Source: Ostrea edulis (lineage: Eukaryota). From it: a stretch of DNA of 64,000 nt. The DNA is taken from the NCBI RefSeq assembly GCF_947568905.1, contig NC_079171.1, positions 4,092,001 to 4,156,000 on the forward strand, read 5' to 3'. Both the position numbers and the translations under genes were made by a program. Below the pieces are notes generated by a model. It did no database searches. It was not told where the DNA came from and was given only the letters and a program-made list of their open reading frames with translations. Shown one piece after another: positions 29,673 through 39,900 of this stretch. Every line of letters begins with the position of its first letter. Position 1 is the first letter of the stretch.

Positions 29673-30374
29673 GGGTAGGTGAGGAGGTGATTAGCAACAC
29701 TTAAAGGATTAATTCACATAGCAACAGTCGAAGGATGATACCATAAATATCTATTGTCAGGGTCACCTTAGTTCATATAGCAACAGTTGAAGGATGATAC
29801 CATAAATATCTACTATCAGGGTCACCTTAATTCACATAGCAACAGTCAAGGGAGGGATCTAAAAATATCCTTTTTTGTCTGCTATAAAAAGGCCAAGTTT
29901 TAAGATTCTATGCACAACCATTACTTGCAATCAAAAGATCCAATTCAATTGAGTAAGTAATATTTTATTATCATATTTACCACGAAATTATGAACACATT
30001 TATGGATATTTTGAAGACATAAAAAGTAAAATTCCATCTACTTGTACAATAAAAGCTGCCCTCTATAACGTTACTTTTTTTTCTTATTAAATTATGAACT
30101 GATTAACAATAAGAAATTGTCAATCAGTATATAAAATATCAAACAAATCTCAATGGATATTTACAGTTTTACACAATTCATAGTATGGTATTGACGTTAT
30201 TGTTAATGTCAATATCACAAGTTGTGAATTTCACTCTCTTTTTCTTTGGTGTCACGGGAGCCAACTGGTCCTCCAAATAATTAGCAATAATGTTAATTTG
30301 TTCCAAGTCCTTTGAAACGCGGTCGCTCAAATCTCGGAGTAATTTAAATTGTTCTACACAAACTTCAAACCGAA

Positions 30375-31933
30375 CTACAAGGTCGTGAACTTGACCCTTT
30401 TTACACAGCTCTTTTTTTTAATCAAGGTGTCTTCAATGAAGTTCATGATTATCTTCATTTGCGCACAATCGTTTTCAACTCTGGTCATCAGACTCTGTAC
30501 AATTTCAAACTGTTCTTTAAAATCTGAGACCGTGACTTGTCCTAGGCCTGGTTCCCTCATTCTGTTTTCCAGCTGTTGTAATTTTACAGGGTTTGTTCTC
30601 CTGTTTAAGAAATTTACCATACAGGGTGTCAGTTACCATGTTGCAATTCAATGTACATCATACAAACTTATGATTTGCAGTTTTGTTTTAAGAATTTATG
30701 TTTACCCTTTTGTAAAAAACAAAAAACAAAAAAAAACAAAAAAAAACAAACAAAAAAAAACATAAGCATGAGCAAATAATTTGATAATACTTTAAATGTT
30801 ATAATTCAATTATGAACATGAATTGTTATTATTACATAAAAAGTTTTGCAATATTCATCACCTCAGATTAGTCAGAATGGAGTCTTCCACGTGACTGAAT
30901 CTGCCTGCATCAGAACTACTGCTGTCAACCTGGTTTTCTGGTGTAGGACTTGAGGGTCTAAAGAGACAAAGAGAGGGTGAAAACACTTTCTAATATGTTC
31001 AAACTAAATTCTAGACATTATTTAAACCTACCTTTTCTGAACGAGTATTCGGTAAATACATATAAAATAGTTATACTAAATATACATACAAAACATTTTG
31101 GTACATTTCATAGTACACAAAAATCCAATCTTTACCTTTTTAATGACTCATCTTCTTTAGCAATTGTCCTAAATGTTGTATGGTAGCTTGGAGAGGGAGG
31201 GGTTGGAATGTAACTTCAATTAAAAATGTAAAATTAGATGCTTGAACACTGGCCTTTTACTAAAATATGAAAAGAGGGATAACTCTTAAATGGCATGAAA
31301 ACTGATTTGACCAGAGTTAACAACATTGCTTACGGAGGTCCGAATGCTGACTTTTCTAAGTCCTCCCCCATTTGTAACCACATCTCCTCAAACTCCGAAA
31401 ACGAATCTGTGGATTTGGTTGCGTCACTGTGATAATGTAAATTTATACCAAAATTATTTTTAAGGAACATTTAAAAATATGTTAATGACTAGACAAGACA
31501 GCAAAACAGCATAGGAAAAAAACGACGAACTATAATTGTTTTCATATGTTATTTTAATTGAATGAATTTGTGGAAATATAAAGAAAAATATATAATAATA
31601 CGTATAAAATACCATTACTAATGTCATGATATGCTACTAGATTGTATGTGGACCAAGATTTTTACGGTAAAATAGTTTTTAATCATTAATATTGCATTAA
31701 TAATAAAAAAAATATCAAGATTTTAGGGGGAAAACATAGTTTTATTAAAATCTAAATTCTTTGTTTTATGAAGTGAGAATAAAATATGAATAAAATATTC
31801 CTTAAAAGTTAGCATGTAAGATATGTTGTTCTTTAAAACGAATTAGCTGTTATTTCCCTAAGTTTATTTAATTAATTTTGAAAAGTTTAAATAAAAAAAT
31901 TACTTACAGAAACTGTAGATATTCTTCTGCCAT
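30375..31933 (-). CDS. Four-exon left-arm gene of element B (31933-31908, 31426-31334, 30957-30862, 30600-30375; 146 aa)
   Basis: Phase-2 GT-AG introns give MAEEYLQFL-DATKSTDSFSEFEEMWLQMGEDLE...-...VEDSILTNLR-RTNPVKLQQLENRMREP...FKEQF...KRVKF. Same exon structure as in element C. Confidence 0.8.
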
Positions 31934-36350: not shown

Positions 36351-36923
36351 TTTTCAAAATGCTGGAAAAAATGAAGATGTATTTTTTCTGTAGTTTAGAC
36401 AATTTTTTTTAATTATATGACGTGTTATTTTATTTTTGAAAAATTCTGAGATTACTGGTTTATGTATTTTTGTCAACAAAACATTTCATGTTTGATGTAT
36501 TTTTGTCTACAAAGCATTTCATGTTTGTTGACAAGTATTTTTGTTATTAATTATTAACTTGTGTGATTTATAAAAACGCCTGACACAAAAAAGTCTGGTT
36601 GTTTAACCCATATATATTTTTTAGATGCAACAAAAAATGTGATTTTAGCGATGTTTAATTTTACTTTTTATATATGATTATACAAATGATTTGTTTTAAA
36701 TCTACCTCATATTACCAATTAAAAGGTTTTTCAAAAGTTTGGAATTGATTTTTACTTGAATATCGGATGAAAGTGGGGAGATTGAGTTAAAAAAAATGTG
36801 AAATAGCATGCTCTCTTTCTTTTCTTAGAGATTGAACCTATTCAACTTCTTACTACACTTCAGCATTAATTTTGAAAATAAGTATAAGTGTCCAGTAAAT
36901 GTATACTTTTATTCATTTAGAAG

Positions 36924-39900
36924 ATGATGGATGGTAGCTTATTAAAAGAAATCTTGGATTCCTTGGAGGATCCGGACTCTGTGCGGTTATTTGCAACGGC
37001 AAATGGTTTAGACGATGATGTTGAGGTTAAGGACCGATTACATGAACTCCAATGGGAAAAGCACATCGACAACTTGTGGCAAGAGGTTCTGTCTGATATG
37101 GAATCTCCTACCAAAAAAATCCGACCATCTCTCAAAGATGGTAATCAACCCTCTACGAGTGGGCAGGTTGGGGGTGGGGAAGAGTCTGAAGACCCATTAG
37201 AAAAACCCTATTTCATTTGGAAGAGAGACACTCGAACATTTAAGAAAAACTTGGCCCGCGACACCACGTTTAAGGTCAAATTTAACGAGCAGTGGAAGGG
37301 GGATAAATTGTTAGATATACATAACAAGTTGCACGATATGTTCGACGACCTGTTGTCAGAGGCCCGGGGTCACGATGCGGATCTGGGAAGGGTGGTCATC
37401 AGTCATTCGAGTTTAAACAATCCGATCGTCGTGCCGCTACAATCCTGGGAAAATCTGAATGCAGATGTCGTCCTGTCCGAGATCACCAAAGTACTTAATT
37501 CGAACGAAAGCTTGTCCGTGGACGAAAATCTGTTGATCACCATAGGGTCCATCGATTTGCCCAAAGGGGGAGGTAACCCTAGAAAATTACCCATCACGTC
37601 TCTCTTTGGTCCTAAAAATAGCGTAGAAAGAAAGAGATCGCTTTTTCACGTACAAAATGATAACAACGTATGTATGGCCATTTCCATTGGTCTCTGTTAC
37701 CTGAAAACGTGTGAAAAAGTAGATGCTGTTACGTGGACAAATTTAGTGGGGAAAGATGCCGGAACAATGTTCGACCATATCATCAAGCACCGTACTGTTA
37801 CTCGATCCTATTACAACAATATCTTGAAAACCTCGAGAAAAAAAATGCAAACGGAGTTGGCGATGTGGCTGTGTGAAAGAGCCGGAGTTCCTACTGACAG
37901 ATATTTAGGTTTGAACGACATCGAACCATTCGAAACCTTACTTGGTGTCTGTATCAACGTTGTGTCCTCAAGAGTAGGGAATAAATTTGTCAGGGTGACG
38001 GAGGACGAGGACAAGCCACGTCTGTATTTATATCACGTGGACACAGAAACTGAAAAACACTGGCACGGGATTGCCAGCATACAAGGCTTTTTTAAGGCAT
38101 CGTATTTTTGCCATACTTGTTTAAAACCGTATAATGATAAATCCAAACACACGTGTACCACCTCGTGTGAGGTTTGCTTACATGACCACTGTCCAGAAAC
38201 AAATGTCCAAATAGGTTGTCGAACCTGTGGACGGGTCTGTCGTTCCGTGGCGTGTTTTAAACGTCATAAAAAACAAAGAGTCGTCAAGAAAGAGAGTTAT
38301 CCTCCTCCTTGCGAACTGTTTCACCAATGTAAAAAATGTAGGGTCATTCTACATTGCTGTAAACGCTCTCCCGACTTGCACGTTTGTCAAGAATGGCAGT
38401 GCCCTAACTGTCTAGAATATCAAATAGGAGAACATCATTGTTATCAAAAACCGTGTGGATGTGATTTAGAAAAAAGAGACAAAAAATTTATTTTCTACGA
38501 TTTTGAGACGCGTCAAGAGGACATCTTTCATTGCGAGCAAGGGTATCGACCGTCTTGCATCAGATGCGACCAATGTGTCAAAAAAGAACGCCAGTGTGTA
38601 GACTGTAGACTCTGTCAGAACTGTCGTGATCCGTCCTGTGGTCTACAACAACACAAAGTCAACTTTGCCGTGCTGCAGACCACCTGTCACATATGTGAGA
38701 AAAGGGAACTGGTGGAGGGCGCCTCCTGTAGTTACTGCGGAACACGGTGTGAGCAATGCTCCCGAACCCATAAAGGTGAATATGTGAACCCCCCTTGTCC
38801 CGACACTTGTGGAAAAAGGGAAGTGGTGTTTTCTGGCGACAACGCCGCCGAGCAGTTCTGTGCTTTCGTCACCAGTGAACATTGTAAAAATTCGATCTTG
38901 ATTGCCCACAATGCCAAAAGTTTCGACTTGTATCCGGTTTTAGAAGTGCTCATAGACCGTCACTCTATTCGACCTAGCAAGATCATTTACAACGGTTCTA
39001 AAATCATGTACATGCACATTGCGCACAAATTAAATTTGACTTTTGTGGATTCCCTCAATTTCCTGCCCATGAAGCTTGCCAAAATACCAGATGCCTTCGG
39101 TCTACAGGAACTCTGTAAGGGATACTTTCCCCATTTATTTAATACTAAAGCCAATCAAAACTACGTGGGGCCGTATCCAGAGTTGAAGTACTACGGATAC
39201 GATTTCATGTCGGCCGGGGAGCGGAAAAAGCTTGCCGAATGGCATGCAACGAAACGAGACGAAACCTTTAACTTTCGAGAAGAAATGTTGCAATATTGTC
39301 GCTCGGACGTTGATATATTGAGGCGGGGGTGTCTAGAATTTAGAAACTTGGTGATCAAGGTGACAACTCTAACAGAGGAAACGGTTCAAGCAAACGGAAT
39401 CATCAAGAAAACGAGCTCGGGTGGAGTCGACCCCTTTGATTTTGTCACCATTGCAAGTGTCTGCATGGGGATATTCAAGTCGCTCTTTTTGAAGGGAAAA
39501 AGTAAAATAGAAATCACCAAAGATGGTGAATCGGATTTGTACGACATTCGTCATCATAAGAGTTTAGAGGGGGTCCATCTCGGTGATTCTTGGACGTCTC
39601 TCGTCGATTTAAGAAAGGACGACAATGTACAGATAGGAAAACGACATTTCAAAAGTCCCGTGGCAGTAGTACCATCTCAAGGATACACGAAGCGCGACAA
39701 TTACAGCAAAATTTCCATCCAGTGGCTGGAGTGGTTGATGGAAAAAAGTCGTCAGCGGGGTAACCCCATTGTCATTTCCCACGCTCTCAACGGTGGTGAA
39801 TTCCAAGTGCCAGGGACCAATTACAGATGTGACGGGTTTGTCAAGATTCCTGGCGGAAACGGAACCATTTATGAATTCTATGGTAAGAGCTTATTATTTT

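Follow-up and report, generated by a model that had tools for sequence, protein, structure and literature searches.

A nested oyster Maverick as a probable two-step recombinant, and left arms likely traded repeatedly near the start of the polymerase gene

The stretch of DNA analysed here (the window; 64,000 nt of the Ostrea edulis genome, G000:C8:4092001-4156000) contains a complete Maverick (Polinton) element, Maverick B, inserted into a second one, Maverick C. Comparison of the two with their relatives in the 895 Mb genome assembly showed a shared core and different arms in B and C, and indicated that B probably arose in two steps through recombination of Maverick lineages residing in the same genome. 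Oyster Mavericks in general have likely traded left arms repeatedly, recently and at nearly one spot, the border between an N-terminal leader and the conserved part of the protein-primed DNA polymerase B (pPolB). The features compared are the following.

29481-49911, + strand: Maverick B, complete, inside Maverick C and interrupting the ectodomain exon of C gene 2
29475-29480 (left copy) and 49912-49917 (right copy), + strand: perfect 6-bp target-site duplication (TSD) of B
29481-30355, + strand: C-type left segment of B, compared with C 23933-24843
30178-30355, - strand: orphan 3' fragment of a last exon of C type, downstream of the stop codon of B gene 1
30356-37190, unstranded: B arm, ~99.8% identity among the four B-arm copies
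36924-37190, + strand: pPolB N-terminal leader, B type, 90 residues
37164-37178, + strand: QVGGG codons, candidate protease site and G-run
37191-49911, unstranded: B core shared with C, comprising pPolB, ATPase region, protease, capsid candidates, integrase, CARD/PC4 gene and right terminal inverted repeat (TIR)
55316-64000, unstranded: C core, ~99.9% identical to the B core

The initial annotation had described B and C as nearly identical up to 30355/24843 and again from 37191/55316, with highly diverged homologous genes in between, and these coordinates proved exact. The left segments matched at 874 of 875 aligned bases with one mismatch, the TIR of B being short by two repeat units (36 nt) relative to C. 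To the right, the last diagnostic bases are 37187 and 37190, and 0.6 substitutions per kb were counted over 37192-49600; the two cores keep eight substitutions and indels of 23 and 6 nt between them. Between the junctions, blastn gave just matches of 17-61 nt, the pPolB leader excepted (76% DNA and 77% protein identity). Homologous exons of the same two genes were recovered in both arms by tblastx and tblastn, with 25-45% protein identity. B gene 1 ends with VKFTTL and a stop codon at 30375-30377, next to which lies the orphan C-type fragment (30355-30178), as had been noticed from the letters. The right breakpoint had been placed just after the QxGGG codons of pPolB, and the QVGGG codons indeed end 12 nt before identity restarts.

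On this one core, four copies with the B arm and at least eight with the C arm were found, the latter number being a lower bound from the best 40 of 1021 candidates scored. The cores of B-arm and C-arm copies differ by 0.6-3.4 substitutions per kb. A perfect TSD of its own was present in all four B-arm copies and in six of the seven C copies having both ends. The right junction is identical in the four B-arm copies, found at four loci on two contigs, and each of them carries the B-type leader on the shared core, which agrees with the claim that the leader moves with the arm. The left junction is different in each copy. In B_51 (C8:51.6 Mb), sequence is C-type for just ~118 bp and the junction lies within the TIR; B_44 (C8:44.8 Mb) changes over within a homologous subterminal repeat at about C 24251-24262; window B switches at C 24843 (30355) with 1 bp of microhomology; and B_C9 (C9:1.19 Mb) switches at C 25104/B 30695 with a 12-bp microhomology, inside a predicted intron of gene 1, so that a chimeric gene 1 would result. 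Given a shared right junction and separate left junctions, the two breakpoints differ in age: the right junction founded the B-arm family, and the left junction is private to the window copy (1/4). A one-step exchange of a cassette with both breakpoints, as first proposed, was rejected on this ground, and one crossover of arm onto core followed by separate left-end replacements is the likely course.

A pair of elements not related to B/C switches at the same pPolB codons. The cores of F (C8:25.40 Mb) and G (C8:3.95 Mb) are ~83% identical to B and differ from each other at 12 positions in 9915 nt (99.9% identical), against 97.3% identity in the outer arm, ~65-66% in gene 2 where alignable and 87% in the leader. 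The zone of dense differences stops 14 nt short of the KPY anchor in F/G and 13 nt short of it in B/C, and F+G is rejected by the leader tree (approximately unbiased test, p-AU 0.004). Lineage D carries a third leader type on a core 98.4% identical to B, a 12-nt deletion at the same place of the leader border and a 1.36-kb tract 91.6% identical to the B arm. In control pairs M/N, O/P and Q/V, identity was 99-100% in leader and core alike. The description of left arms as swappable modules held in so far as the arms are exchangeable. 'Module' is too clean a word, because cores and arms are themselves patchy: core differences between D and B are clumped (variance 13.3 versus mean 4.0 per 250 nt), and identity between A and U ranges along the core from 82 to 100%.

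Arm and core trees were not congruent. In the tree of the gene 1 last exon (12 of 23 matches, being duplicates, fragments or distant short matches, were omitted), B grouped with lineage E and a truncated relative, L018 (support 94/93), and both B+C (p-AU 0.001) and B+C+D (p-AU 0.002) were rejected; in the core tree, built on the 570 nt that follow the junction, B+C+D was supported at 100/99. DNA trees were made without the near-identical partners N, P and V, and the ectodomain tree without N. Conflict among the trees was significant just for gene 1 (B+C) and the leader (F+G). Together with the four perfect TSDs and the second lineage pair switching alike, the disagreement of arm and core trees supports the original idea that B is a recombinant and that arms are exchangeable.

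A donor with the B arm plus its own TIR and core was also looked for, and no element with the B arm on a different core was found in genome searches with five probes (B arm, 39 of 39 candidates scored; leader plus core, 29 of 29; B-native left end, 31 of 33 matches; ectodomain protein, 9 of 19; capsid gene, 26 of 27). The donor side holds only L018, ~1.8 kb long and with a different TIR, and the more distant lineage E. Past its first 118 bp, the left end of B_51 is 87% identical to L018 over 804 columns (90% for the B-native left-end probe), and its match to its own right end is lower (75-84%). The B arm is read as the incomer, and the C arm is maybe itself an older acquisition.

The window copy has a further tie to its host. 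Among ten copies, the alleles at 24772 and 24783 (B 30284 and 30295) are common to only window B and host C, as is, within the set of B/C copies compared, the premature stop of pPolB at 40869-40871. Window B is without the four core alleles that the remaining three B-arm copies have in common, and its core and that of C are each other's closest copies. From the shared alleles, the C-type left end and core of window B probably derive from the host C element, either by conversion in place or by re-insertion of a C-derived recombinant into its parent, two routes that are not separable. Local gene conversion, the alternative named at the outset, accounts in this way for part of the identity of window B; it does not account for the B-arm family. 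At two positions in the segment 37143-37165 of the otherwise B-type leader, 37151 and 37157, window B has the base of C and differs from the other three B copies, possibly a patch of micro-conversion.

Sequencing runs from four studies, one run each, were compared over 29250-30720. B-arm contigs starting from 30355 were present in three of the four runs, and uninterrupted C at 29480 in all four. Run X6 gave a 59-nt contig over 30326-30384 with no differences and a depth of 11.4, the length expected of junction-only 31-mers. Raw reads of run X23 (~6% of the run) contained almost no B arm, and carried the host-C alleles in 2/5 and 2/6 reads.

Several observations weigh against the account given so far. 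At 42328, window B carries the allele of the other B copies and not that of host C, and it is without six other C-private substitutions. F and G retain four differences at +38 to +155, so that their junction is less sharp. The leader tree does not reject B+C (p-AU 0.077), and the ectodomain tree, uninformative with no starred branches, does not reject B+C (p-AU 0.24), B+C+D or F+G. Because a complete donor was not found, the direction of transfer is read from TIR discordance and a single tree of a short exon. The flanks of G and C_4.7 are unmatched, with no matching TSD, so exchange between integrated copies within the genome happens as well, and TSDs cannot distinguish recombination before integration from conversion after it. 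The X6 contig, listed in one of the four runs, has 30 and 29 letters either side of the junction, under the 31-letter bridging rule, and the insertion junction of B in C was not among the read pieces listed for the four runs.

The leader border itself combines three properties. A Q-x-G-(G or x-G) motif was found in 17 of the 17 leaders examined (14 clearly distinct), and the same Q-x-G form occurs in a basic core open reading frame (ORF) at 44902-45411. The adenovirus protease consensus is (M/L/I)xGG-x or (M/L/I)xGx-G; all 17 leaders fit one of these two adenain spacings, but with Q in the first position, making QxGGG a candidate adenain-type cleavage site. The G-run window at 37159 scores 2.0 by G4Hunter (2.32 in C), second-highest in B and the top score among coding sequence. 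Similarity between lineages also rises at the border (E versus B, C or D: 81% in the leader, 90% after it). The junction coincides with the predicted protease site, the homology edge and the G-run, and the three are not separable. Polinton pPolB is described as opening with a terminal-protein (TP) domain, and cleavage was proposed between TP and vOTU, not at QxGGG, in the available text of 10.1101/2024.03.18.585575; in oyster the terminal-protein domain would begin at the KPY anchor. No wording on cleavage was found in the text available for PMC8502044, PMC8097293 and PMC10748475.

For the first step, one crossover would have occurred just past the G-rich QxGGG codons, at the start of conserved pPolB, probably by a template switch or by annealing of strands in the course of protein-primed strand-displacement replication. 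A C-type core would thereby receive a foreign left arm, made up of two accessory genes and the leader of pPolB, after which the outer TIR would be matched to the opposite end and the product integrated at several sites. In the second step, left ends of single copies would have been replaced by C-type DNA, at the homologous subterminal repeat once, at the 12-bp microhomology once and at the 1-bp joint in window B; the different junctions are observed directly, and the manner of replacement is conjectural. The outer TIRs of B_51 and D agree with the right ends of the same elements, unlike the inner parts. Adenovirus work has made end-to-end repair of linear replicons familiar, and such outer-TIR matching is expected from the repair of a single-crossover linear genome. 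Junctions likely pile up at the border for two reasons: exchange would run along similar cores and stop where similarity falls, and the leader is predicted to be cut off, so that a foreign one would cost little. The likely gain is a new variant of a hypervariable surface glycoprotein. Exchange along the whole core, ending at the homology edge, with a foreign leader tolerated since it is probably removed, is the explanation we favour. A wider picture can be entertained tentatively, in which oyster Mavericks would be a recombining live-virus population with its switch point at the border of cleaved leader and terminal protein, a successful core would by this route acquire new left arms again and again and so alter a hypervariable mucin-like surface glycoprotein (an antigenic or exclusion-type shift), and panhandle repair would be a footprint of free replication.

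A strict module boundary is a possible though doubtful alternative, in which crossovers occur anywhere and survive only at the protease site, with terminal protein, polymerase and origin from one parent. The motif in all 17 leaders and the basic core ORF, the lack of a donor-type tail past the junction in B/C and the terminal-protein domain at the start of Polinton pPolB (as far as described in 10.1101/2024.03.18.585575) are in line with it. Yet pPolB is not protected from exchange, as seen in the clumped differences of D and B and the patchiness of A and U, and the same source, in its available text, proposes cleavage elsewhere than at QxGGG.

The G-run suggests a sequence hotspot, where a G-quadruplex of the Gly codons stalls the polymerase arriving from the core side and the template is switched at the 3' edge. 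Junctions do lie just 3' of the G-run, the 12-nt deletion of D falls there, and just 0.9% of the windows in the pPolB region reach a score of 1.2. However, the top-scoring G-run, in a predicted pPolB intron, marks no lineage-scale junction, and the score, itself a prediction, is just 1.1-1.4 in D, E, I, Q and U, leaving a hotspot of this kind unlikely.

It is similarly improbable that all mosaics come from ectopic gene conversion or break repair between integrated germ-line copies, with no extrachromosomal step. The host-C alleles of window B, including the shared premature pPolB stop, the missing TSD matches of G and C_4.7 and the clustering and nesting of copies on contig C8 would suit such a process. 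The occurrence of one right junction at four loci, spread over two contigs and each flanked by a separate TSD, argues that the founding chimera was copied and integrated after it had formed, and the outer-TIR matching of B_51 and D is as expected from end-to-end repair in linear replicons.

Collapse or mis-joining of nested near-identical repeats in the assembly is very improbable as an explanation. The cores of B and C lie 18 kb from each other as direct repeats and are mutually closest copies, and the B-in-C insertion junction was absent from the listed read pieces, as an artefact would have it; collapse alone was rejected, since the cores keep their eight substitutions and two indels and three unlinked copies share the arm-core junction. 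The left junction is moreover present as a contig in a 2025 run, and raw reads of another run carry the host-C alleles in 2/5 and 2/6 reads. Finally, that arms merely evolve faster than cores, with no exchange at all, has a negligible chance: leaders diverge somewhat faster (the 81 versus 90% of E) and the glycoprotein is hypervariable (20-36% identity to B), but rate variation alone is contradicted by the drop from 100% to unalignable at one base, in non-coding DNA too, by cores differing by ~0.1%, by control pairs without a gap between leader and core and by the gene 1 tree.

Mosaicism of Polintons is already known; its recent, base-resolved and convergent form was not found in the literature searched. 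In the parts available of PMC10748475, nematode Polintons are described in which the whole pPolB was replaced by that of a distant class, and ongoing exchange between close elements is left as a possibility that the authors could not track. As in those swaps, oyster elements of the same genome have some genes almost the same and another strongly diverged, and their trees conflict; unlike there, the accessory arm and a 90-residue leader move, cores differ by ~0.1% and junctions are placed to the base. Mosaicism at the level of modules and domains is likewise reported, in the text at hand, for Polisuvirus hypermosaicism (10.64898/2026.10.13.758929) and the polinton-like viruses (PLVs) of entomopoxviruses (PMC11296320). 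Unlike the long-distance reassortment of replicase versus capsid in those cases, oyster replicase and capsid stay together, the arm changes and the junction recurs. A tandem-integration model in the same Polisuvirus report, as far as its text is available, proposes tandem or nested copies as substrates, which fits window B inside C. Virion-module transfer has been described (PMC8502044, available portion).

Nematode Maverick cargo (10.1101/2022.07.12.499685, in the text available) resembles the oyster arms in being a variable, intron-containing region beside the left TIR, for which recombination was deduced from domain modularity. That cargo consists of host-derived proteases and kinases, unlike the oyster arms, which repeat the same two genes in most lineages examined and whose junctions are seen directly. 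The closest working analogy is the hypervariable-region recombination of human adenovirus D, including E3 CR1, in which the backbone is conserved, hypervariable genes for surface or immune-modulating functions are exchanged, and junctions fall in conserved flanking sequence bearing GC-rich motifs (PMC3648800, in its accessible part). Unlike adenovirus D, the oyster elements are integrated Mavericks of which only integrated copies are seen, and some of their left junctions are non-homologous. Gene 2 showed no sequence or fold match to adenovirus CR1 or to anything else. No published report of arm swaps or of a recurring pPolB-leader junction in mollusc Mavericks, or of recent arm swaps combined with a recurring leader junction in animal Mavericks, was found in a search of mainly open-access literature, without supplements.

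These elements offer a base-level view of gene swapping hitherto deduced mainly from deep family trees. This genome shows very recent exchanges, which bear on whether Mavericks of animals continue to encounter one another and recombine as viruses do. The junction recurs across lineages with cores just ~83% alike, and what moves is a predicted surface protein of hypervariable sequence. This opens the mode of replication, the processing site of pPolB and the part played by accessory genes to direct tests. Single consensus entries in repeat libraries misrepresent such mosaic families.

The remaining features of the C arm, and the genes of both arms as predicted exon structures, are listed below.

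23933-24163, + strand: left TIR of Maverick C, ~231 bp
24669-24902, - strand: C gene 1 predicted last exon, coiled-coil-like with a basic C-terminus, 43% identical to the B exon
24844-25642, unstranded: C arm, piece 1, sequence that window B does not share
25643-27144, - strand: Tc1/mariner element in the C arm, inserted at a TA site
27145-29480, unstranded: C arm, piece 2, containing a minus-strand exon of gene 1 (27362-27475) and the first part of the gene 2 exon for signal peptide and ectodomain, which B interrupts
30375-31470, - strand: B gene 1, predicted to be spliced, with frames of its exons at 30375-30632 and 31330-31470
31659-32990, unstranded: tract between B gene 1 and gene 2, 91.6% identical to the lineage D arm
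33041-35410, + strand: B gene 2, predicted spliced type I membrane glycoprotein, from sequence predictions
49912-55315, + strand: C arm, piece 3, remainder of gene 2, then C-type pPolB leader from 55049

Gene 1 gave no protein-family match. Gene 2 of B consists of a signal peptide and six-Cys ectodomain (33041-33319), Ser/Thr/Pro repeats (33937-34311) and a transmembrane segment with tail (35048-35410), the predicted tail being rich in Pro/Ser/Thr; in C an ectodomain (49914-50126), repeated mucin-like exons and a transmembrane/tail part (53522-53872) were recognized. Protein identity between B and C is 29-30% in the ectodomain and 25% in the transmembrane/tail part. Across the scanned loci the ectodomain had 18 matches, and the other 13 rows of the alignment are just 20-36% identical to B, on which gene 2 is predicted to be a hypervariable surface glycoprotein. 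An AlphaFold model of the ectodomain (pLDDT 77.9, pTM 0.59) had no match in PDB or BFVD at E<=0.001 and a highest VIA Z of 3.0, Atlas gave no usable match for it, and a likeness to leucine-rich repeats was unsupported (Z ~2); missing fold matches do not show a new fold. The mucin-like stalk of C is encoded by tandemly repeated exons (50623-53164) in 796-bp units, the number of which differs between copies, and that of B by repeats within one exon (33937-34311). The landing site of B (29480/49912) is the ectodomain exon of the C glycoprotein gene, a single case and maybe chance.

Maverick C starts at 23933 and ends 4 kb beyond the window at G000:C8:4160037, with its own 6-bp TSD; the Tc1 element at 25643-27144 is absent in the other seven C copies. 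TIRs ending 5'-(AGT)2...(ACT)2-3' and a 6-bp TSD are hallmarks of Maverick/Polinton elements (PMC8097293, available text), and B and C both have these ends and duplications. Pfam matches were obtained for a protein-primed PolB (PF03175, E 1e-20 and 6e-18), a retrovirus-like integrase at 45872-47026 (rve, E 1.3e-11, with a chromodomain) and an adenovirus-type cysteine protease at 43104-43586 (Peptidase_C5, 22.1 bits, cut-off 21.3). The capsid candidate gave a weak double-jelly-roll-like match (17.1 bits, under the cut-off of 27) and the ATPase region a weak Pox_A32 match in C only (18.2 bits, under the cut-off of 22.8).

In pPolB, a GT-AG gap of 132 nt (39883-40014) between the YEFYG- and CVFHG-encoding sequences is kept in B, C, D and E and contains the strongest G-run of the element; it resembles a spliceosomal intron, here within a core gene of a Maverick. 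Core ORFs of intact vertebrate Mavericks are described as intronless (PMC8097293, in the text available), and B and C would depart from that type given this gap. Lesions comprise a 23-nt deletion in the ATPase region of B, at 42930, and a further early stop in C pPolB, at 55345. In the right arm, one gene (47204-48274, minus) has CARD and PC4 domains (E 9e-13 and 3e-14) and another (48799-49239) a predicted transmembrane segment and PC4; they are possibly an apoptosis or immune decoy. An internal block of TIR-like repeats (48314-48504) lies upstream of the CARD/PC4 gene.

A third Maverick, A, lies within window positions 1-7000 on the minus strand, with the same arm genes and together with L055 and L082; the heptad repeats at the end of its gene 1 exon (4419-5102) match the RNA Pol II CTD family (E 2e-9). 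A degraded pPolB-like fragment was found on the minus strand at 15157-15722. Contig C8 holds 25 of the 29 pPolB matches, clustered near 3.9-5.0, 25-27, 33 and 51-52 Mb, with elements nested or adjoining (for instance one inside P at 4.89 Mb), which suggests targeting of other Mavericks or of particular regions.

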